A stretch of 64,000 nucleotides of DNA from an uncultured archaeon (GTDB taxonomy: Archaea > Asgardarchaeota > Lokiarchaeia > Sigyniarchaeales > SOKP01): NCBI GenBank assembly GCA_964508365.1, contig CAZDTP010000008.1, positions 35,513 through 99,512 of the forward strand. The letters are read 5' to 3'. Position numbers and translations under genes: made by a program. The notes beneath the pieces were generated by a model. It saw only the letters and a list, made by a program, of their open reading frames with translations. It was not told the origin of the DNA and made no database searches. This document shows, piece by piece, positions 16,991-26,756 of this stretch (its first letter is position 1; each line of letters starts with the position of its first letter).

Positions 16991-17812
16991 ATGACGGCAG
17001 AAGAAGTATTAGTTATAAAGCTTGGCGGTTCATTGCTTACGGACAAATCAACGGAATACAAATTAAGAGAAGATGTTATAAAAGCAGTTGCTGCGGAAAT
17101 AAAAGAATGTATTGATTTAGGTCTAATCAAAAGTCTTGTAATTATCCACGGAGTAGGTTCTTTCGGCCATCCCCCCGTGTTAAAATACAATCTTCATAAA
17201 GGCTTTAGAAATAAGGATCAATTAATTTCAATGTCAAAAACGCAGCAAATCGTGAATGAGTTTCGAAACACGATTGCCACTACATTTCTGGAGGAAGGGG
17301 TTCCTATTAACTTGATGCACGCCTCTTCGATGGTTGTGGGTAATAAGATGGTGATAGCTGATCTTGCATTTAATTCTTTAAAAGGCTTTTTATCTTTGGG
17401 GATGGTCCCATTGATAGGAGGCGACATGATGTACGATACCAATATGGGTTTTAGCGTTTGTAGCGGAGATCAATTAGCTGTAGTTCTTTCACGCGTATTA
17501 CACGCTAAACAACTATTATTTGCAACAGATGTGCCTGGTGTGTTCGATAAAGACCCAAAATCGGGAGAGCATGCACAACTGCTTAGAGAAATAAATATCA
17601 ATAAGATTGAAAAAGTATTAAGCAAAACGAACGAAACAAGTAAAACCGATGCGTCTGGTAAAATGCAAGGTAAATTGCTTTCACTGGTTTCGATTAAGGA
17701 TCGAATACAAGAGGGTCTTGAAGTAATTATTCTCTCAATGAACAAGAAGGGTGTTCTCAAGAATTATCTTAAAGGAGAAGAAAGTGAACTGACAAAAATA
17801 ATTTGTAATTAA
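16991..17812 (+). CDS. ipk: Isopentenyl phosphate kinase (amino-acid-kinase fold)
   Basis: IKLGGSLLTDK, IHGVGSFGH (IPK signature), SGD and DASGKMQGK. Confidence 0.9.
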   Translation: MTAEEVLVIKLGGSLLTDKSTEYKLREDVIKAVAAEIKECIDLGLIKSLVIIHGVGSFGHPPVLKYNLHKGFRNKDQLISMSKTQQIVNEFRNTIATTFLEEGVPINLMHASSMVVGNKMVIADLAFNSLKGFLSLGMVPLIGGDMMYDTNMGFSVCSGDQLAVVLSRVLHAKQLLFATDVPGVFDKDPKSGEHAQLLREININKIEKVLSKTNETSKTDASGKMQGKLLSLVSIKDRIQEGLEVIILSMNKKGVLKNYLKGEESELTKIICN

Positions 17813-18388: not shown

Positions 18389-19615
18389 GTGAGAAAACAG
18401 ATTTCACAGAACTCTTTAGATGAAATAGAAGGGAAAAAACAAAAAAATTTGACAATTGGAAGAAAACACATTTTCTTAGTGCTTACATTGTCATTTATGG
18501 TCAATTTCGACAGCAACGCAGCAATTCCGATAATTGCTACCTACGCGGGAAAATTAGGAGCCTCGATAATATTCGCAGGATTTATTGTAGGAATTTACTC
18601 CATGGTCCATATTCCTTCAAACATAATTTTTGGAAGGTTAGTTGACAAAATCGGCAGAAAAAGCTTAATATCTTTAGGAGTATTTTTAGATGGGTTATCA
18701 CTGCTTATATATGCGTTAGCTCAAGATCCTATTTTCCTATTATTTGGAAGAATAATTCACGGAATAGGAGGTGGTTTTGGAGGACCTGCTACAATGGCTT
18801 ATATCGCTGATGCTACATCCCAAAGGCGTAGCGGAAGGGGGATGGCACTATATGGAATGTCCATCGGATTTTCAAATTTGATAGGATTCTTGTTAGGTGG
18901 CCTAGTTGCTCAAATAATTGGAGAAAGCAATTTGTTTTTCATAATTGCAATTGTTTTATTCGTCATGTCATTTACATCACTATTTCTTCCTTCGATTTAT
19001 CAACCATCCAAAGAGAAATTCAACCTCCGCAAGGAAATCAAACAATTTAGAGAAGTAGTCTTTAGAAAATCTATGATAAGTCCTTACTTTTCGATTCTAG
19101 CAATGATGTTTAACATGGGAATTGTTACAGCAGCATATACGGTAATGTTAGAGTCTGCAACATATACAGTTGGTCAAACAGGGATGATTCTTAGCATTAT
19201 GGTTATCTTTTCGATACTAATTCATTATCCCGCCGGAATTTTAAGCGATAAAATAGGCTACATTAAGGTAATGCTAATTGGATTATTTCTGATTGCGTTT
19301 TCATTTGGAGTTTTTATAATATCTTTAGAAGCCCCATTTCCTATGATCGGAATGGCTCTTCTCGGCGTAGGCCATGGATTGATATTTCCCTCCTCAGCTG
19401 GAATGATTAAAGAGAAAACTAAAGATTCTGAAAGTGGAGTAGCGACAGGAACATTCTACGCCTTGATTGTAGCAGGTGTGGCTATTGGAGCGCCGGTCTC
19501 TGGTTTTGTATACGAAATTTATAACGCCCAATTTACTTTGGCATTAGGAATCATCATTCCTTTAATCATGGCTATCGTTCTCGCAGTTCTTTTAAAATAT
19601 CTTAAAAAGGATTAA
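18389..19615 (+). CDS. Major facilitator superfamily transporter
   Basis: 12 TM segments, with motif A (GRLVDKIGRK) repeated (GILSDKIGY). Confidence 0.92.
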   Translation: MRKQISQNSLDEIEGKKQKNLTIGRKHIFLVLTLSFMVNFDSNAAIPIIATYAGKLGASIIFAGFIVGIYSMVHIPSNIIFGRLVDKIGRKSLISLGVFLDGLSLLIYALAQDPIFLLFGRIIHGIGGGFGGPATMAYIADATSQRRSGRGMALYGMSIGFSNLIGFLLGGLVAQIIGESNLFFIIAIVLFVMSFTSLFLPSIYQPSKEKFNLRKEIKQFREVVFRKSMISPYFSILAMMFNMGIVTAAYTVMLESATYTVGQTGMILSIMVIFSILIHYPAGILSDKIGYIKVMLIGLFLIAFSFGVFIISLEAPFPMIGMALLGVGHGLIFPSSAGMIKEKTKDSESGVATGTFYALIVAGVAIGAPVSGFVYEIYNAQFTLALGIIIPLIMAIVLAVLLKYLKKD

Positions 19616-19632: not shown

Positions 19633-20084
19633 ATGTTGCTTGACTTTTTAAAAAACAAAAAGCATTATCACTTATTTTGGCGATAGCATTTATAGTGCTA
19701 TTCGTAGCGGGTATAGTGCTTGTATCTATCGAAGATTATTCGTTATTACTATCTCCTTTAGTGTCAACAGTAGCTAGCCCTAGTGCTTCTGCAACCGTCA
19801 TGGTTGCCCACATTCCAAGTAGCCTCTCGATTATATTACTTCCATTGTATACAATATTCAAAATTAAAAAAACCAATTGGAAAGCTTTATTAATGTCAAT
19901 TGGAGGTCTGGTTGTTAGTCTTGCTGGTGTACTTCTGGCATTTTTTACTCTTAATCCTATTGACATCCCATTATTGATTTTGATATTAACTGTTCTGCCA
20001 ATTATGTTAGTTATTACGGCTGTATTTTTTGTATTTGGAATGCTACTTCCAGAAATATGGAGTTTCGCAATCCCTGGCTTATAA
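19633..20084 (+). pseudogene. Frameshifted or truncated membrane-protein gene
   Basis: MLLDFLKNKKHYHLFW (from ATG 19633) continues naturally into AIAFIVLFVAG... only through a -1 shift near 19650-19680. There is no room for its own promoter after the MFS stop. Confidence 0.45.
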
Positions 20085-20184: not shown

Positions 20185-20760
20185 TTGAAAATTAACCAAA
20201 TTATTATGTCAAGAAAAAATATTTTTTATATTTTGTGCATCTTTTTGATTATCGGTTTGAATTTGAGCGCTTTTAGTGTGAAAGCGCATAGTCCTATAAC
20301 TATGGATATGGAATACGATCTAGATGCACAAGAACTTAGTATTAAAATTACGCACGGAGTTACGGACCCTACTTATCACTATGTATACTTAATGGAAGTT
20401 TGGGTTAATAGTAGTGATCCTTATCATCCTCCCGAAGCTCCTGATTATTCGTTCCACTTCACTGAACAACCAGCTCACAACATAAATAATTATATCCTAA
20501 GTTTTCCAGCCGGAGATAAGGCTAATATTACTGTAACAGCCTATTGTTCCCTCGGTGGAAGTTTAACAGAACATTTTTACATTGGACAACCCTACTATAA
20601 CCCACATGGAACCTTCTCTTTAGCAGTAATTCCTACAATTGTCTCGACGATCATAGTATTTGGGTTGCTTTTTATCTTACCTATGTTAGGACAAAAAAAC
20701 GCACCAAAAATAGAAGGTAAGAATAGGTATCAAGTAAATGATAAACAAAAGATATTTTAA
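20185..20760 (+). CDS. Exported, C-terminally anchored protein with a desulfoferrodoxin/SOR-like His-His-His-Cys pattern
   Basis: Signal peptide ending VKA|H, then H35, H57, H65 (HY) and C121 (AYCSLGG), plus a C-terminal TM. The start may be ATG 20206. Confidence 0.7.
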   Translation: MKINQIIMSRKNIFYILCIFLIIGLNLSAFSVKAHSPITMDMEYDLDAQELSIKITHGVTDPTYHYVYLMEVWVNSSDPYHPPEAPDYSFHFTEQPAHNINNYILSFPAGDKANITVTAYCSLGGSLTEHFYIGQPYYNPHGTFSLAVIPTIVSTIIVFGLLFILPMLGQKNAPKIEGKNRYQVNDKQKIF

Positions 20761-20805: not shown

Positions 20806-22296
20806 ATGGTGTTAAAAATAGAAACAGAAACAATCCCAATCGAATCAGGTCTAGAAACCTCAATGGAAACGCAGGAGATGAAAGTTGAACCAGAAACGAG
20901 TTTCAAGAAGATACATTATGTCATGTTTTTATTCGTATTTGTTCAAGTACTTTGGTATCTGACTTTTTCCGAACCTTTGACTGTCCTAATTGGGGGAGAG
21001 CCGATCTTTCCTTTCTTCCTTAGCGACGACATAATATCAAGGACAGCTCGAATTGTCATGATATATCACTCGTTAGCTTTACCCTTTTTAATTGCGAACA
21101 CATTCTGGGTATTAGAACACTATGAAATCCGTCAGAAGTGGTTGCCAACTCTAAAGATCCTGTTAATACCTAGTGCGTTTCTTGTAGGTATAAATGGAAT
21201 GATTTTTGCGTATACACGTCTTAGACTTTTCCACGAACTTTTCACTTTTGGTATGCTACTTTGTTTCATTGGTGGAATTGTATTTGTTATAGCAGCGTGG
21301 CCAGTAAAGGGTAGATTTCCAAAAGTTAACCCTAGAGGTTCCACATTCAGAGGGATTAATTTGGAATATTTTAATCTCGTAATTTTAGCGATATGCATAA
21401 TGGTTTCGGCAATATATGGCGCTCTTGCAGCTATTGAAAACTTTACGAATAGTATTTGGGGTCTAAACCGCGAACCTATAGCATTTTTAGCAGAAGCAAT
21501 CATTAGACACGGGATAACTTTCGGACACGAACACGATATCGTCCAAGACATGATAGTTGGTCACCTTCACATACAGCTTGCTCAATCAGCAGCTATGGTT
21601 ATGCTGGTTGCCTTCCGTACGAGTAAATTGTCAGGTAAGCTTTATACTTATTTGTTATTGTTTACTCCGATTGGCGTTATAACATTATCTTATGGTGCTT
21701 GGGTTCTAAACCATTACGTAATATGGGTGGGCGCTGGGCTATTGATACTAGTAACTATAATTATGTCAATAGTTGGCATGAAGACCACTATTAAGGAACA
21801 TTTAGGAGACGATTACAGATCAGCATCACATTCAGAAAGGCTTAAAGCTTTGTTTAGGGAACCTGTAAAATTGACATATTATTACCTTCTTTTTATTGCA
21901 GAACTTATAGTTTTCCCTCAAATCTATGTTGGGCTTGTTACTGATGATATTTATAGATTACATTCATATGTACAACTGGAGTATAATTTTAACGTTGCAC
22001 ATTGGCACCAATTGGCAGTGATGATCGCTGTGGCTTTGATGATACATGCTATCGACTTTTTCAAAGTTGAAGGTCGATTAAAAAAATTATTGGGTTGGAT
22101 TTTTTTTATCGGAGTTAATTTAACATTTCCTTTCGCAATGGCACATATGGTACGTCCAGTAGAATGGGAAAGTGTTGAGATCTTTCTGACTATTACATTT
22201 CTGGGAGTATGGTTTCTCTTGGCAGGCTTTGTACTCGGATTATACGCGCTAGGTAAAAATCTAAAACCTAACCCATTAACTTCTAAACTAACGTAA
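20806..22296 (+). CDS. Divergent heme-copper oxidase superfamily subunit-I-like protein (12 TM)
   Basis: H88 (TM2), GH253LH255IQ (TM6), NH303, VAH399WH401 (TM10) and FIGVNLTF (TM11). The His spacing parallels Cox1. Confidence 0.72.
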   Translation: MVLKIETETIPIESGLETSMETQEMKVEPETSFKKIHYVMFLFVFVQVLWYLTFSEPLTVLIGGEPIFPFFLSDDIISRTARIVMIYHSLALPFLIANTFWVLEHYEIRQKWLPTLKILLIPSAFLVGINGMIFAYTRLRLFHELFTFGMLLCFIGGIVFVIAAWPVKGRFPKVNPRGSTFRGINLEYFNLVILAICIMVSAIYGALAAIENFTNSIWGLNREPIAFLAEAIIRHGITFGHEHDIVQDMIVGHLHIQLAQSAAMVMLVAFRTSKLSGKLYTYLLLFTPIGVITLSYGAWVLNHYVIWVGAGLLILVTIIMSIVGMKTTIKEHLGDDYRSASHSERLKALFREPVKLTYYYLLFIAELIVFPQIYVGLVTDDIYRLHSYVQLEYNFNVAHWHQLAVMIAVALMIHAIDFFKVEGRLKKLLGWIFFIGVNLTFPFAMAHMVRPVEWESVEIFLTITFLGVWFLLAGFVLGLYALGKNLKPNPLTSKLT

Positions 22297-22312: not shown

Positions 22313-23206
22313 ATGAGGATGGTCTTGGACTTAAAAAATATGTTATCTCTCTTTGGAGAGTTAATAAAAGCTAAACAAACCATACTTTTGCTTTATACTG
22401 GAGTTTTATCTTATTTAATTACCGCCTTCAGTTTAGTAATTGAAATAAACTGGCTCAATTTACTATCTCTGGTAATCTCATTATACCTCACAGTCTCAGG
22501 TACTACCGTACTGAATATGTATATAGATAGAGATATTGACGCAATCATGGAGCGCACAAAAGATCGCCCGTTACCAAGTGGTAAAGTTACAACATCTACT
22601 GTTCTTACAATTGGAACCGTGTTAACTGTTACAGGTATCGTTCTTGCATTTCTAACTCTCAATTGGTTAACTGCATTAATTATTTTTTTAGGCTTTTTCT
22701 TTGATATCGTAATTTATAGTATTCTATTGAAAAGAAGAACTAAGTATAGCATAATCTTTGGAGGGATTGCTGGTGGTCTTCCGGCATGGGCTGGTAGGAC
22801 CGCTATAATGGGAAGTTTAGACTGGATTGGATTCTTATTTCTTATCTTCATTCTAGCTTGGATTCCCGTCCATATTCTTACAATAGCTTTAATACCCAAA
22901 AATTATAAAGGATATAAAGATGCGGGAATCCCTATGTGGCCAATTGTAAGTTCAAGAACACAAACAATGCGAGTTATAACCATAGGGGCATTGATTAGTA
23001 GTTTAGCGCTCTACGAGGCTGCTAGGATTTTAGGGGCAAATGCGATTATAAGAATCATCTGGGGGGTCTGTTGTCTAATAATTTTAGTTTTAGTAATAAA
23101 AAACTTAATAAAACCTTCAAATAAGCTCACTTTCCTCATTTTTAAGATTGCGTCTCTTTACATGATCCTAGGATTTTTATTACTCTTATTCGTAGTTATC
23201 CTATAA
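22313..23206 (+). CDS. cyoE: Protoheme IX farnesyltransferase (heme O synthase, UbiA family)
   Basis: LIKAKQT.LL, NMYIDRDIDAIMERTKDRPLPSG, YSILLKRRT, GGIAGGLP.WAG, WIPVHI and YKDAGIPMWP. Confidence 0.93.
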   Translation: MRMVLDLKNMLSLFGELIKAKQTILLLYTGVLSYLITAFSLVIEINWLNLLSLVISLYLTVSGTTVLNMYIDRDIDAIMERTKDRPLPSGKVTTSTVLTIGTVLTVTGIVLAFLTLNWLTALIIFLGFFFDIVIYSILLKRRTKYSIIFGGIAGGLPAWAGRTAIMGSLDWIGFLFLIFILAWIPVHILTIALIPKNYKGYKDAGIPMWPIVSSRTQTMRVITIGALISSLALYEAARILGANAIIRIIWGVCCLIILVLVIKNLIKPSNKLTFLIFKIASLYMILGFLLLLFVVIL

Positions 23207-23291: not shown

Positions 23292-23873
23292 ATGGAACCT
23301 GAGATACAAATATTACTATCTTTTATAGCTGTTGCGATCTTTGTAGCACTGATTTTAACATTGAATTTTAGAAAAAAAGGGACACTAAAAGTTCTGATTT
23401 GGATTTGGATTATCTTATTCGGAATTTTGATGACTGTAATAGTCGTATTGAACGGTATTGAAATCCTTGCGCCTAGACCAACAGCGTTGATGATTGATGA
23501 ATATGATGTTTTTACTAGTTGGCATATCGGTGTAATCCTAGGTCTACCGGCATTAATTTCGCTATCAATTGGAACTATTCTCGTTTTATACAACGAGCAA
23601 AAATACGTATTATGGCATGGATATACGGCAGGAGGAGCTCTAATTGTTACGATTATAAATATTATTTTATTAATATTCTTAACTCCAACAGAAATACTTA
23701 ATTATTCCGGAATGATCCACGCACTCCATATAATGCTTGGAGCAATAGGTTTAATGACGGGTAGTGCAAGCTTTTTATTTGGTGCTTCTGGACAGCGAAA
23801 TCTCGCTAGAATGACAGGATATTTTACATTAGCAGGATGGTGGGGAGCCTTTCTATTGGGGCTTTTTCTTTAA
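23292..23873 (+). CDS. His-containing membrane protein, DUF420(CtaM)/cytochrome-b561-like
   Basis: About 6 TM with in-membrane His residues: SWHIG, LWHGY and IHALHIMLG. Confidence 0.6.
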   Translation: MEPEIQILLSFIAVAIFVALILTLNFRKKGTLKVLIWIWIILFGILMTVIVVLNGIEILAPRPTALMIDEYDVFTSWHIGVILGLPALISLSIGTILVLYNEQKYVLWHGYTAGGALIVTIINIILLIFLTPTEILNYSGMIHALHIMLGAIGLMTGSASFLFGASGQRNLARMTGYFTLAGWWGAFLLGLFL

Positions 23874-23896
23874 TAGAAAATGAGGTAAAAAAGATA

Positions 23897-25363
23897 ATGA
23901 ATGAAGTAAAAGTTGAAGAAAAACAAGAAAATGGAAAGACTAAATTTACATACGAAATAGAAGAATTCATATCATCTCCACATGTAAGTACAGATAGGTA
24001 CGAAATTGAAGCAACTTCCGGTGATCTTTCATTGTTATCTAAGTATCACTATAAGTTTAAAGAAGAATATCAGGCTACTCATGTAGTTCGTCCTGGTAAC
24101 ACCGAAGAACTTTCTAAATTAATGCAAAAATGCTATGAATATTCAATGCCTGTAACCCTACGAGCCGCAGGAACTTCGTGTTATTCAGCTTCTACACCTA
24201 CTAAAGGTGGTGTTATAATTGATGTGCGACGAATGAACAAGGTACACAAAATTGACAAGGAAAACATGACTGTCAAATGCGATGCGGGAATTGCGTGGCA
24301 AAAACTCATTGAAGAACTTCTCGACTACGGATTAGCTCCAAAATGTTATCCTACTAGCTATAGGGCTAGTTGTGTTAGCGGATTTGTCGCTACTTCTGGT
24401 AAAGTAGGAATTGGTGTCTTGAAAAATGGAATATTGAAGGATGCATTACAATCTGTTGTTTTTGTGAAACCAGATGGCTCTACAGAGACAATATCTAGAG
24501 ATTCTCAAGGAGATTTATCGCTTGATGACATCATAGGCTCTTTTGGTATATTTGGCGCTGTTGCTGAAGTAGAATTAGAAGTAACTACTCTTACAACTTC
24601 AATAGAAATGATAGGATACAGTTTTAATACATCTAAAATGGCGATTGAGTTTTTTCGAACTTTGAAAAATAGCAAGGCAAATAAACCGCTTTTCCTTTCG
24701 CTTTCGGATAAACATTTTGAGAAGTATGCTCACTGGACTTATCCATCCCGAGATTATTTTGTCTTTGCGGTATATTCTGACGATCCTAATGTGACCTCTC
24801 AGAATGTTTCGTTTGCTAAAGAAACTGCTTCAAAGTTAGATGGACTTAGTGTTGAGGAATGGTATCTAAAGGAAAAATGGCGCGACATAACTGAAACTGA
24901 ATTAAATCTAGGACGATGGTGTCAAAATCTAATTTTTCAAGAATATTGGGTTTCAGATGAGAGAGTTGAAGATTTTTATAACTTTTACATGGAAAAGACT
25001 TCTAAGCAACGGTATCGACACGCATTTTACTTGATGTCTGGAGCTAAAGGAGGGAACAGAGTCAAACTTTTCGGTCTTTCTGATATTAAGAACTCTCGAG
25101 AATTTTTCGGAATTAAAGCAGTTTTTAACGATATTACAATAAACAACTACGAACATAAAGACAGTTTATACTCGTTAGGGGTTGTAAATACATTCTACTT
25201 TCTTAGGTTTAACCCTGAAAAAGCAGCGTACTTACGAAATTTGAAAAACAAATTAGACCCAAAAGATCTCGTTAATTCTTATAGATTAGTGAAAGCAAAA
25301 ATGAGACCTTGGCGCGTTGGACTCCTTTTTTGGATAGCAAAACGACTCTACAGAACAGCCTAA
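23897..25363 (+). CDS. FAD-binding (PCMH-type) oxidoreductase, GlcD/D-2-hydroxyacid dehydrogenase-like
   Basis: VVRPGNTEEL, RAAGTS, GGVIIDVRRMNKV and C-terminal LDPKDLVN. The probable start is ATG 23897 after GAGGT; the track start at 23837 overlaps the upstream gene. Confidence 0.88.
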   Translation: MNEVKVEEKQENGKTKFTYEIEEFISSPHVSTDRYEIEATSGDLSLLSKYHYKFKEEYQATHVVRPGNTEELSKLMQKCYEYSMPVTLRAAGTSCYSASTPTKGGVIIDVRRMNKVHKIDKENMTVKCDAGIAWQKLIEELLDYGLAPKCYPTSYRASCVSGFVATSGKVGIGVLKNGILKDALQSVVFVKPDGSTETISRDSQGDLSLDDIIGSFGIFGAVAEVELEVTTLTTSIEMIGYSFNTSKMAIEFFRTLKNSKANKPLFLSLSDKHFEKYAHWTYPSRDYFVFAVYSDDPNVTSQNVSFAKETASKLDGLSVEEWYLKEKWRDITETELNLGRWCQNLIFQEYWVSDERVEDFYNFYMEKTSKQRYRHAFYLMSGAKGGNRVKLFGLSDIKNSREFFGIKAVFNDITINNYEHKDSLYSLGVVNTFYFLRFNPEKAAYLRNLKNKLDPKDLVNSYRLVKAKMRPWRVGLLFWIAKRLYRTA

Positions 25364-25397: not shown

Positions 25398-26756
25398 ATG
25401 AGTGATGAAAAAGTAAGTGAAGATGTAAAAAAACTAGTAACGACTGGTCCTACCGTTTCTTCCATGTTTGCACCAGACAAAGAGAACTTAGTTGAACCTG
25501 GATCTCACAAAGACAACGATTTTGAGCGATGTATACAATGCGGTTATTGCCGCAATGTTTGTAGGGTGTATAGTATAACCTTTTCCGAAAGGGATTATGC
25601 CGGGGGACGAAATAGAATCCTCAAAGCTTTGTCTAAAAAGGAGCTTGATTTCAATAAAGAAGAGATCATTCCTTCAATCTTTCAGTGTATGCTTTGTGGC
25701 CATTGCAGGACCGTTTGCCCCGTAGGAATCGATTTGTTAGAAGTTTTTCAAAATTACAGAAGAACTGCCGTGCGTAAAGGGGTTCTACCTGAAAAACTAG
25801 GAATCTTAAAAAACTCTATACTAACAAACAAAAATCCATTTCTCGAAAGTGGAACTGATAGATATAATTGGTGTGATTCGGAAACTTGTAAAGAAGGGTA
25901 CGATGCATTACAACGTGGAATAGAACGTACTAGAAAAATTGAATCTGGGGAATTAAAACCGAGCGATATTGATGAACATTTAGTAGGTTATTTCGTTGGT
26001 TGTACTAGTTCGTATCGAAATAACGAGTTAAGTACAGCAACAGCTCGAATTTTAGAGAAACTAGGCGTGAAGTTCATTTTGTTTCCCGATGAATATTGTT
26101 GTGGGTCGGTCATGTTCCGAACTGGGTTAGAAGACGATGCTATTCAATTAGTTAAATATAACGTTGATATGATTCGAAAGTTAGGAGTTAACGAACTCGT
26201 CTTTTCTTGCGCTGGCTGTTTTTCTACATTTAATAATGAATATCCTAAGTTTGTGGGGGGCCTTGACTTCGAGCTTTCTCACTTGGTTCAATTTGTACCT
26301 AAAATCGTAAAACAAAAGGGACTTAGAATAAGATACACGAAGCGAACAAAAGAAGACCCAATGATTATTACGTATCACGATCCATGCCACTTAGGACGAT
26401 ATTGTGGTGTGTACGACGAACCAAGAGAGCTAATGAACATGATTGAAGGCGTTAAGTTTATAGAGATGAAACATAACAGAGAAATGTCTTTATGCTGTGG
26501 TGCGGGTGGAGGAGTAAGAGCTTTATATGGAGAAATTTCGCTTGATATTGCTAGTAATCGGTTAGATGAAACTGTAGCGTGTTGGGAGAACATTAACGAA
26601 GACCGTTTAAAGGAAGCAATCGAATCAAAGGCAGAGGTATTAGTTAGCGCTTGTGTCTTTTGTAAAAATAATCTACATCTCGCAGCTAGTCAGACAAAAC
26701 CTGATTTACCAATGATAGATTTATCTCAAATCCTTTCTGAATGCGAATTTTATTAA
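25398..26756 (+). CDS. Fe-S oxidoreductase, GlcF/HdrD-like (2x[4Fe-4S] plus two CCG domains)
   Basis: CIQCGYCRNVC, CMLCGHCRTVCP, YCCGS...SCAGC and YHDPCHLGR...LCCGAGGG...SACVFC. Confidence 0.92.
   Translation: MSDEKVSEDVKKLVTTGPTVSSMFAPDKENLVEPGSHKDNDFERCIQCGYCRNVCRVYSITFSERDYAGGRNRILKALSKKELDFNKEEIIPSIFQCMLCGHCRTVCPVGIDLLEVFQNYRRTAVRKGVLPEKLGILKNSILTNKNPFLESGTDRYNWCDSETCKEGYDALQRGIERTRKIESGELKPSDIDEHLVGYFVGCTSSYRNNELSTATARILEKLGVKFILFPDEYCCGSVMFRTGLEDDAIQLVKYNVDMIRKLGVNELVFSCAGCFSTFNNEYPKFVGGLDFELSHLVQFVPKIVKQKGLRIRYTKRTKEDPMIITYHDPCHLGRYCGVYDEPRELMNMIEGVKFIEMKHNREMSLCCGAGGGVRALYGEISLDIASNRLDETVACWENINEDRLKEAIESKAEVLVSACVFCKNNLHLAASQTKPDLPMIDLSQILSECEFY

Follow-up and report, generated by a model that had tools for sequence, protein, structure and literature searches.

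A divergent oxidase-like membrane protein with seven invariant histidines, encoded beside a haem O synthase-like gene in a Loki-type Asgard archaeon

The ORF at positions 20806 to 22296 (+ strand) of the window, i.e. the whole stretch of 64,000 nucleotides that was analysed, encodes an oxidase-like protein (here called HCOL) of 496 aa with 12 helices, seven invariant His residues and a predicted haem-copper oxidase (HCO) subunit I fold. HCOL is probably the core subunit of an HCO superfamily branch that uses haem O, has diverged very far and has gone unannotated. NO, O2 and reactive oxygen species are the candidates for its substrate.

Predicted structure of HCOL

The frame was open throughout, and its translation gave all 496 aa. 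Placing the residues by script on this translation located H88, H253, H255, Q257, N302-H303, H399 and H401, the motifs DIYRLH (381–386) and FIGVNLTF (434–441), and a spacing of exactly 50 residues from H253 to H303. The residues were all found at the numbers given in the original prediction, which had been made from the sequence alone. It had also noted 12 hydrophobic segments, and the AlphaFold model (pLDDT 86.7, pTM 0.87) has 12 long helices.

In this model, H88 lies nine residues into helix 2 (79–105), on the outer side, while H253 and H255 are both located in helix 6 (245–273). H303 forms part of the turn joining helix 7 to helix 8. Helix 10 (386–418) contains H399 and H401. The charges of the HCOL loops agree with the oxidase topology, with both termini inside, and all seven invariant His residues are found in the outer half of the membrane.

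Conserved residues and the metal site

Conservation was assessed with an alignment of 206 archaeal and bacterial homologues, many of which are only 23–30% identical to HCOL. The original prediction depended on the His residues being conserved, and seven His of the protein (H88, H143, H253, H255, H303, H399 and H401) proved to be invariant. Fourteen columns of the alignment were conserved to at least 99%, and half of these (7/14) were His, in a protein with a His content of 3.4%; our own binomial estimate for this enrichment was ~1e-7. Besides the seven His, the residues R82, Y87, E230, R384, E392 and W400 were also conserved to 98–100%. The three His residues expected to ligate haem (H88, H399 and H401) had been described as intact, and this held for all 206 homologues (100% conservation), with the HxH of helix 10 aligning with that of the oxidases.

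The canonical CuB/FeB set of three His was incomplete among the 206 homologues, in which only H253 and H303 were present. The oxygen-reducing families A, B and C have a cross-linked Tyr in the active site, placed one turn past the helix 6 His or, in the C family, in helix 7. It was missing here, as position 257 is Gln or Met and no Tyr of helix 7 was conserved to 85% or more. Likewise, the FeB Glu of the cNOR and qNOR type was missing, Gln or Met being found in its place at position 257.

The original prediction described the site as one in which HH had become NH and Tyr had become Gln. Both descriptions are valid for the Loki/Thor subclade, which has Asn at position 302 and Gln at position 257, but neither applies to the family as a whole. 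Family-wide there is a single His at position 303, preceded by Ala in 80 of 80 bacterial members, and position 257 is Met in the same 80 of 80 and in the other Asgard members sampled. Y304 was also limited to the Loki/Thor subclade. Seven positions (140, 144, 257, 302, 304, 396 and 450) were found to covary, with two states that switch together.

Neighbouring genes and an exported partner

The ORF at positions 22313 to 23206 (+ strand) encodes a haem O synthase-like prenyltransferase of 297 aa (TIGR01473, 196.7 bits, E 6.8e-58, with a cut-off of 210.3). The second-ranked model for this protein, an unrelated UbiA model, reached 47 bits. Of 34 Asgard genomes, about 26 have a strong haem O synthase gene adjoining that for HCOL, and a haem O synthase gene has the same place in 74 of 80 bacterial loci.

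Upstream of HCOL, positions 19677 to 20084 (+ strand) encode u135, a small polytopic membrane protein of 135 aa without a Pfam family. Its homologues adjoin the HCOL gene in four Asgard loci (L014, L018, L019 and L020), and profile comparison related it to a bacterial cluster of 206-aa proteins (probability 98.3%, E 2.5e-14), which is encoded directly upstream of the HCOL gene in 42 of 80 bacterial loci. Judged from these relationships, u135 is a candidate accessory subunit or assembly factor common to the bacterial operons.

The next ORF, at positions 20185 to 20760 (+ strand), encodes u191, an exported, membrane-anchored beta-sandwich protein of 191 aa. Its family comprised 99 proteins, all from Asgard archaea, with six invariant His residues (H35, H57, H65, H98, H130 and H141) and one invariant Cys (C121); H35 is the first residue past the likely signal cleavage site (A34). 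The model of u191 (pLDDT 77.8) shows a signal/TM helix, seven strands (39–132) and a C-terminal TM helix. The best Foldseek matches were archaeal superoxide reductases (6gq8, 1do6 and 4brj; E 1.5e-4 to 4.2e-4, TM-score by target 0.45), and VIA-align returned only generic Ig/FnIII folds (Z ~10). No Pfam family matched u191, PF01880 included, and a genome-wide search of the host with PF01880 detected only a cytoplasmic superoxide reductase on contig C3. The ligand set of superoxide reductase (neelaredoxin) is Fe(His)4Cys. By Foldseek only, u191 shares with this enzyme a predicted beta sandwich, in which several His and a single Cys are invariant, but it differs in being exported and membrane-anchored, in a mature chain that probably begins with His, and in the lack of a PF01880 match.

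Complex prediction for u191 and HCOL gave a score of 0.62, compared with 0.00 for the best of three controls. Of 80 solved complexes 58 scored this high, as did 2 of 110 mismatched pairs; these counts hold only roughly here because our own alignments were used and two haems were included. The runs agreed on at least 74% of the contacts, with a pLDDT of at least 79 for u191. The beta sandwich was predicted to sit on the outer loops 66–80, 223–235 and 386–393 of HCOL, with the invariant H35, H65 and H98 of u191 at the interface. These models make u191 a candidate outer-face partner subunit of HCOL.

Downstream, positions 23292 to 23873 (+ strand) encode d193, a small membrane protein of 193 aa without a Pfam family, which is kept downstream of the HCOL gene in loci L012, L013, L016 and L017. 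Two of its His residues (H78 and H109) were invariant in five of five sequences, and two more (H143 and H145) in the four sequences that reach that far. From its sequence, d193 could be a b-type cytochrome or an assembly factor. It is followed by a gene for a dehydrogenase of 508 aa that binds FAD and is of the GlcD / D-lactate dehydrogenase type (positions 23837 to 25363, + strand; PF01565, E 2.8e-29), an arrangement also found in L013 and L017, and this enzyme is a candidate electron donor. The ORF at positions 25398 to 26756 (+ strand) encodes an iron-sulfur protein of the HdrD/GlpC/TfrB type (452 aa), which has a pair of CCG domains and one 4Fe-4S dicluster domain (PF02754, E 9.4e-34; PF13183). 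Its best NCBIfam match, TfrB (186.8 bits), was under the cut-off, and the protein is tied to the cluster by its position only.

The bacterial loci had a different set of neighbours. A gene for an FGE-fold lipoprotein lies directly downstream of the HCOL gene in 79 of 80 loci, and in one bacterial protein (P0136) HCOL is fused to this partner; fused forms longer than 887 aa were not found, which is weak evidence. Genes for two multihaem c cytochromes and for a regulator of the Crp/Fnr family are frequent additions in bacteria; Rrf2 regulators were present in only 4 of the 80 loci. No nir, nor, nos or oxidative-stress genes were detected among the recurrent neighbours of the 80 loci, and the lack of any enrichment of denitrification or oxygen-defence genes speaks against the enzyme proposed here. 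Neither d193 nor u191 had a detectable counterpart among the bacterial accessory proteins, and d193 is unrelated to a bacterial protein of 229 aa.

These partners bear on a second explanation, in which HCOL would be a haem-carrying electron relay without a catalytic site of its own, which would receive electrons from donors in the membrane or periplasm and feed them to an outer metalloenzyme (u191 in Loki/Thor genomes, the FGE lipoprotein in bacteria). The incomplete three-His metal site is consistent with such a role, as is the finding that each lineage has a different extracytoplasmic partner with a metal-enzyme fold. The predicted seat of u191 over loops 386–393, which lead to helix 10, with three invariant His of u191 at the interface, also fits a relay. 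However, H253 and H303 occupy binuclear-site positions and are invariant across both domains despite the differing partners, and many Asgard members (loci L018–L022) have no u191 gene nearby. In addition, the strict link to haem O suits a catalytic haem in the high-spin state, an argument drawn from oxidases such as bo3 and aa3, which carry one. A relay function is considered unlikely, and a catalytic core subunit is preferred.

Distribution and haem supply

Members of the HCOL family were found in Asgard genomes of the Loki, Thor and Hod types. Bacteria contributed species genomes numbering at least 586, Anaerolineae for the most part. The original prediction had placed the family in a lineage regarded as anaerobic. 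With this bacterial range, it is not special to Asgard archaea.

The host genome, which is 100% complete by marker genes, encodes no canonical COX1 and no cytochrome bd, in agreement with the view that the lineage is anaerobic; PF00115 was silent genome-wide, whereas it was detected in nine control genomes. A complete Anaerolineaceae chromosome with the HCOL operon also had no COX1. Since neither the host nor this chromosome has a canonical oxidase, HCOL is the only visible client for haem O. Within the host genus, a strong haem O synthase was limited to the five genomes that carry HCOL. Because HCOL adjoins its own haem O synthase, 'oxidase-free' anaerobes of this kind probably hold an undescribed haem enzyme.

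Among the genes of tetrapyrrole synthesis, neither HemB (ALAD) nor HemC was detected in the host genome, so haem must be scavenged. ALAD was missing in the host and in all 40 sampled genomes of its family, and in four of five bacterial HCOL carriers. The inability to make tetrapyrroles tells against a haem enzyme; however, another Asgard family (f22) has canonical COX1 and is also without ALAD.

This lack of haem synthesis, together with the position of the HCOL gene beside the synthase gene in both archaea and bacteria, would also be expected if HCOL were a non-catalytic haem importer, chaperone or store that, in haem auxotrophs, hands scavenged haem B to the synthase or takes up haem O from it. 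No known haem transporter has the HCOL fold, however, and the strong structural matches are all redox enzymes. Haem O would moreover be left without a user in genomes that lack a canonical oxidase, and the neighbours of HCOL (multihaem cytochromes, FAD and iron-sulfur dehydrogenases) are of a redox type. A role in haem handling is regarded as quite improbable.

Relation to the haem-copper oxidase superfamily

The original prediction of an HCO subunit I fold was borne out by two structural searches. With VIA-align, the HCOL model was compared with 48,161 chains, and the top ten matches were all subunit I of oxidases or NO reductases (Z 14.5–21.7), the first unrelated fold having a Z below 10. 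The best match was the cbb3 oxidase (3mk7_A; Z 21.7, 394 residues aligned, 3.8 Å, 8% identity), and others were cNOR (4xyd_A, Z 20.2), bo3 (Z 18.7) and ba3 (Z 18.1). Nearly all of the Foldseek matches listed, the best 35 included, were also subunit I of oxidases or NO reductases with a probability of 0.99–1.00, at E values of only ~3e-3 and TM-scores of 0.45–0.58.

By profile comparison, a three-fold internal repeat of four-helix units was detected in HCOL (unit 2 vs. unit 3, 96.7%, E 4.3e-10; unit 1 vs. unit 3, 65.6%). A three-fold fold of 12 TM helices had been anticipated, and the 12 helices, the detectable repeat and the subunit I matches all conform to it. The repeat within the sequence itself and H143 were both absent from the original prediction.

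A profile alignment of HCOL with oxidases placed FNVGHWH on the helix 10 motif VVGHFH, and IGVNLTF on the motif of helix 11 (probability 79%, E 1.6e-5). The motif DIYRLH had been equated with the oxidase stretch that precedes helix 10 (HDT), but this assignment was not upheld, as the profile alignment gives the invariant E392 instead, seven residues before H399. When a larger alignment of the HCOL family was compared with 14 oxidases, the probability was lower and the HxH of helix 6 was misplaced onto the HxH of helix 10. No alignment was obtained by global hhalign of HCOL with Asgard COX1.

Sequence and profile searches of Pfam, NCBIfam and the PDB gave no match to HCOL, in line with the claim that the family is unclassified. 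The best match of the library searches, SieB (E 0.029), was at chance level and was rejected. NnrS is a 12-helix haem-copper protein; it was also rejected as an identity for HCOL, which no Pfam family matches. PF00115 (COX1) detected nothing in HCOL and 25 relatives, even at E 1–10. As no sequence model of the superfamily detects HCOL, even at E 10, the case for common descent with the superfamily depends on the fold together with a single local profile match, whose probability is moderate. Fold searches of the ESM Atlas returned only a cluster of fragments of the same family and unrelated folds, and feature searches returned Chloroflexota clusters without names, plus one from archaea ('TVG1190485').

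It is highly improbable that the likeness to oxidases is convergent or a modelling artefact, and that HCOL is an unrelated 12-helix protein (e.g. a transporter) in which the His residues have a ligand different from haem: the silence of the sequence libraries, the Foldseek E values and TM-scores, and the middling Z scores that are common for helical bundles would allow it, but Z 21.7 over ~390 residues far exceeds the helical background of ~14 quoted for VIA-align, one superfamily supplies all ten top matches, the helix 10 HxH was aligned by sequence profile, and the haem O synthase neighbour is kept in two domains of life.

Compared with CcoN, the cbb3 subunit (3mk7), HCOL has the same number of helices, a His in helix 2, a His in helix 6 and the HxH in helix 10. 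The spacing between the His of helix 6 and that of helix 7 is also alike, at ~50 residues. In contrast to CcoN, helix 7 of HCOL ends with a single His rather than His-His and lacks a conserved Tyr, helix 6 carries an additional His at +2 from the shared one, and helix 4 begins with an invariant His. Identity between the two is 8%, HCOL has no Pfam COX1 match, and the archaeal cluster is without cytochrome c subunits.

NorB of cNOR (4xyd), the second-best structural match, shares with HCOL the absence of a cross-linked Tyr, and the conserved acidic residues of HCOL are mostly on the outer side, a further likeness. cNOR uses haem b, and the link to haem O synthase seen for HCOL is not known as a feature of cNOR. 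A recent survey gives three His and a Glu one turn past the helix 6 His as the FeB ligands of cNOR (Murali et al. 2024, PMC11214002). HCOL differs in having two His, with Gln or Met in place of the Glu, and in the lack of a NorC-like subunit.

HCOL also resembles the recently defined gNOR, eNOR, bNOR, sNOR, nNOR and NOD, families of environmental origin whose active sites are non-canonical and lack the Tyr. These six are understood to be sequence-recognisable relatives of the B or C families, whereas PF00115 fails on HCOL altogether. The survey takes a missing cross-linked Tyr to indicate non-oxygen chemistry and names gNOR as the earliest case of a family with one active-site His replaced (by Asp); it makes no mention of Asgard archaea, and no family like HCOL is described in the parts that were available (Murali et al. 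2024, PMC11214002). The original prediction referred to a Tyr-to-Gln change in eNOR, which was not found in the text of the available parts of that paper or its preprint. Our literature search found no paper that describes the HCOL family.

Proposed function

If HCOL is a haem O-dependent core subunit, H88 (helix 2) and H401 (helix 10) would hold the low-spin haem, and H399 would hold the high-spin haem O provided by the adjacent synthase. A second metal, opposite the haem of H399, would be held by H253 and H303. Residue 257, one helix turn past H253, may act as a weak third ligand to this metal; its position would correspond to the site of the cross-linked Tyr in A- and B-type oxidases, and to that of the FeB Glu in cNOR. 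H255 would lie at the site of the gating Glu of A-type oxidases. H143, in the turn between helices 3 and 4, would lie where the Ca2+ that bridges the haem propionates is found in cbb3 and cNOR. Another possibility considered is that H143 and H255 bind a third cofactor inside the first pore of HCOL.

HCOL probably forms a complex with u135 and, in this lineage, with the superoxide reductase-like u191 on the outer face. Electrons may reach it from the pair of FAD and iron-sulfur dehydrogenases through the four-His protein d193. The reaction to be expected is a two-electron reduction of a small oxidant, since the Tyr of the active site is absent and one of the three canonical His is missing. This reaction, with NO or an O2-derived species as the oxidant, would take place on the outer side of the membrane and would serve protection rather than energy conservation.

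A broader proposal, possible but rather doubtful, is that the HCOL family is a surviving early offshoot of the superfamily, in whose sequence the ancestral triplicated four-helix unit can still be read, and that its binuclear centre is of a third kind (haem O with a metal held by two His and Met or Gln). With such a centre and lineage-specific outer partners, Asgard archaea of the Loki, Thor and Heimdall types, along with hundreds of 'anaerobic' bacteria, would have a hidden ability to reduce O2-derived species or NO.

The usual view of Loki-type Asgard archaea is that they are strict anaerobes and have no terminal oxidase, and it underlies arguments on the role of oxygen in eukaryote origins. 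A conserved membrane system with an oxidase fold and a dependence on haem O would escape every annotation pipeline. With HCOL present in Asgard genomes of the Loki, Thor and Hod types, as well as in so many bacterial species, gene-based maps of O2 and NO metabolism would be incomplete. The readable three-fold repeat, and a metal site of two His plus Met or Gln, bear on how the active sites of oxidases and NO reductases evolved. The family is open to bench testing. No RNA dataset was among the listed carriers of the cluster, and its DNA was found in metagenomes from salt marsh, soil and sediment.

Predicted fold of HCOL

Translation of the forward strand at 20806-22296 gave an open frame of 496 residues, the oxidase-like protein HCOL, in a window of about 33% G+C. 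Its named residues lay where the original prediction had placed them, namely H88, H253-L-H255-I-Q257, N302-H303, H399-W-H401, DIYRLH (381-386) and FIGVNLTF (434-441). The start codon is uncertain because M20, which opens a conserved METQ motif (window 20806-20865), is 90% conserved and is the start of several homologues, and the 19 residues before it are likewise conserved in many homologues (I-E-x-E-x-x-P). The nearest database relatives carry the labels Lokiarchaeota or Promethearchaeota. Searches of Pfam and NCBIfam gave no match to HCOL, even at E 10; comparison of the single protein with PDB sequences gave chance-level matches only (E 1 or worse), and a PDB search with a 36-sequence HCOL profile gave zero matches.

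An AlphaFold model, for which 36 homologues served as input, contained 12 long helices (pLDDT 86.7, pTM 0.87). When this model was compared exhaustively with 48,161 representative chains, the top ten were subunit I of haem-copper oxidases and NO reductases, led by the cbb3 oxidase 3mk7_A (Z 21.7, 394 residues aligned, 3.8 A) and including cNOR (4xyd_A, Z 20.2), bo3 (1fft, Z 18.7), ba3 (3eh3, Z 18.1) and qNOR (3ayg, Z 15.1); the first unrelated chain thereafter scored Z <10. Almost every Foldseek hit listed was again subunit I, as were the 35 best without exception; their probabilities were 0.99-1.00, but their E values were weak (about 3e-3) and their TM-scores 0.45-0.58. At the level of the model, these top matches bear out the oxidase-type 12-helix fold that had been proposed. 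The placement of loop Lys and Arg residues, read from the sequence, agrees with the oxidase topology, with the N and C termini on the inner side; the conserved His residues (7/7) all fall within the outer membrane half.

Gene neighbourhood and candidate partner proteins

The gene following HCOL (22313-23206, +) encodes a haem O synthase-like protein that scored 196.7 bits against a cut-off of 210.3, other UbiA subfamilies scoring far lower. A synthase of comparable strength directly adjoins the HCOL gene in about 26 of 34 Asgard genomes, and in the host's genus it occurs only in the five HCOL-carrying genomes. One Asgard genome has a tandem pair of haem O synthase genes beside the HCOL gene (G193:C13:26838-30446). 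In bacteria HCOL is followed by a lipoprotein of FGE fold (79/80 loci) and then by the synthase (198.3 bits; 74/80 loci), and contig ends interrupt most of the loci that lack a synthase hit. In one bacterial protein cluster, P0136, HCOL is fused to the FGE domain. A Crp/Fnr-family regulator lies ahead of the operon in 49/80 loci, and a pair of multihaem c cytochromes is close by in 18/80, one with a clear match to the Pfam cytochrome c7/c3 models and the other with a weak one. The protein u135 (19677-20084, +) is homologous (probability 98.3%) to one encoded directly upstream of HCOL in 42/80 bacterial loci. Since this homologue, HCOL and the synthase are found in both, the core is common to both domains of life. 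The bacterial operons (L023:11421-14185 and 41 more loci) also contain unnamed conserved membrane proteins, in clusters of about 229, 264 and 144 aa.

Other partners are specific to the archaeal lineage. The protein u191 (20185-20760, +), from an Asgard-only family, is exported and has a C-terminal membrane anchor. Its invariant residues are H35, immediately after the likely signal cleavage site, and H57, H65, H98, C121, H130 and H141. It was modelled as a sandwich of seven strands, for which Foldseek ranked archaeal superoxide reductases first (E 1.5e-4) and VIA-align returned generic Ig-like folds only. A PF01880 search missed u191, yet detected the one cytoplasmic superoxide reductase of the genome, an ordinary protein (G000:C3:109016-109279, 83.5 bits); a conventional oxygen-stress defence is therefore encoded besides the HCOL cluster.

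Complex prediction for u191 with HCOL gave a score of 0.62, compared with 0.00 for the best of three controls. The mark used was reached by 58/80 solved complexes and 2/110 mismatched pairs, a benchmark that is only rough for this pair, as custom alignments were supplied and two haems were included. The runs shared at least 74% of contacts, with partner pLDDT of at least 79. The sandwich was placed over HCOL outer loops 66-80, 223-235 and 386-393, and the anchor helix against helices 7 and 8; known enzymes have subunit II or NorC at this site. The prediction supports, rather than demonstrates, binding of u191 to HCOL.

Downstream lies the membrane protein d193 (23292-23873, +), with two invariant histidines (H78 and H109) and two more (H143 and H145) that are retained in every sequence long enough to include them. 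Next come a GlcD-type FAD dehydrogenase and an iron-sulfur protein carrying CCG domains; d193 and the FAD dehydrogenase are also found downstream of the HCOL gene in a sister family. Immediately upstream of the cluster is an ordinary-looking MFS transporter of the drug-efflux type (18389-19615) and, farther away, an equally ordinary-looking archaeal isopentenyl phosphate kinase (16991-17812).

Conserved residues and proposed reaction

Conservation was assessed in 206 HCOL members (126 protein-database sequences and 80 bacterial species genomes). H88, H253, H255, H303, H399 and H401, the histidines on which the original prediction relied, were 99-100% conserved, as was H143, and R82, Y87, E230, R384, E392, W400, L403, G149 and G290 were 98-100% conserved. 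Positions 140, 144, 257, 302, 304, 396 and 450 changed jointly between two states: R, E, Q, N, Y, N, R in 82 sequences, and F/W, G, M, A, x, L, K in bacteria and Heimdall-like archaeal members. Q257 and N302 were limited to the Loki/Thor subclade, and all 80 bacterial members had M257 and A302. The earlier reading of an NH pair and of Gln in place of Tyr thus holds for that subclade and fails family-wide, these being lineage traits; what characterises the whole family, judged from the alignment, is a lone His at the turn between helices 7 and 8.

The parsimonious reading is that each invariant His maps onto a known subunit I position. H88 and H401 would hold a low-spin haem and H399 a high-spin haem, probably haem O, with H253 and H303 as two of the three ligands of a putative second metal. 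H255 would stand in place of the A-family gating Glu, and H143, at the helix 3-4 turn, would occupy the site of the Ca2+ ligand in cbb3 and cNOR. One turn after H253, position 257 is Met or Gln, where A- and B-type oxidases have the cross-linked Tyr and cNOR has the FeB Glu. In type 1 copper sites, Met and Gln are the two weak ligands that classically replace one another, a precedent which hints that position 257 touches a metal. By the criteria of Murali et al. 2024 (PMC11214002), reduction of O2 to water is not expected of a site that lacks the Tyr. A two-electron reaction is more likely for HCOL. Candidates are reduction of NO to N2O, or of peroxide or superoxide jointly with the outer partner. 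The strongest rival explanation, that HCOL is a pure electron relay to an outer-face partner, would suit the predicted placement of u191.

Haem supply

In the host genome, for which marker genes indicate 100% completeness, neither HemB, HemC nor cytochrome bd was found. Taken alone, this speaks against a haem enzyme, and would suit a second rival, that HCOL is a haem-handling protein in haem auxotrophs. In Asgard family f22, however, ALAD (HemB) was found in 0/10 sampled genomes, canonical COX1 in 5/10 and the HCOL family in 9/10, so even oxidase-encoding Asgard lineages look like haem auxotrophs. ALAD was also missing in four of five bacterial HCOL carriers, one of which encodes canonical COX1 twice. 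Reliance on scavenged haem thus seems to be the norm among these organisms. Across the sampled Asgard genomes PF00490 (porphobilinogen synthase) was detected in only 11/201, in families f4, f14 and f25.

Sequence links to the superfamily

Local profile-profile alignment of HCOL with ten Asgard COX1 sequences (probability 79%, E 1.6e-5) aligned FNVGHWH with VVGHFH in oxidase helix 10, IGVNLTF with the motif of helix 11, and the invariant E392 with a conserved Asp 7 residues before the first His, an Asp that serves as the Mg/Mn ligand in the A family. As judged by profile comparison, this is the sole direct sequence bridge to the superfamily; global alignment of HCOL and oxidase profiles was unsuccessful, and larger alignments came out worse. 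The three-fold repeat is still visible when four-helix units of HCOL are compared as profiles. Helices 5-8 matched 9-12 (96.7%, E 4.3e-10) with HLH on HWH, helices 1-4 matched 9-12 (65.6%) with H88 on H401, and a weak alignment of helices 1-4 with 5-8 put H143 on H303. The weakest of the rivals is a convergent fold, against which the alignment of the helix 10 HxH speaks.

Distribution

The HCOL family, for which a narrow range had been expected, proved much wider, being present in 34/201 sampled Asgard genomes of several families and giving at least 586 confirmed matches in a scan that took one genome for each prokaryotic species. Among the matches listed, most were Anaerolineae and other Chloroflexota; the rest included Ignavibacteria, Melioribacteraceae, Neomarinimicrobiota, Aminicenantes, Caldithrix and others. 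An exhaustive search of representatives recovered relatives down to 23% identity. Canonical COX1 was detected in 13/201 sampled Asgard genomes, from three families only, and in 0/40 genomes of the host's family. No published description of the HCOL family was found; the accessible text of Murali et al. 2024 (PMC11214002) does not mention Asgard archaea, and nothing resembling the family was found in it. A preprint on Asgard oxygen metabolism describes mainly A-type oxidases, in Heimdallarchaeia.

Three genomes of Asgard family f20 (G042, G066, G072) encode a haem O synthase above the curated cut-off without COX1. They gave only a weak HCOL match (E 1e-8 to 1e-11, residues 354-470), in open frames of 462-472 aa that may represent an even more divergent branch. 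When Atlas clusters were ranked by language-model features, the second closest to HCOL was the archaeal 'TVG1190485 protein family' (461 aa, commonest phylum Nitrososphaerota), which could be another branch.
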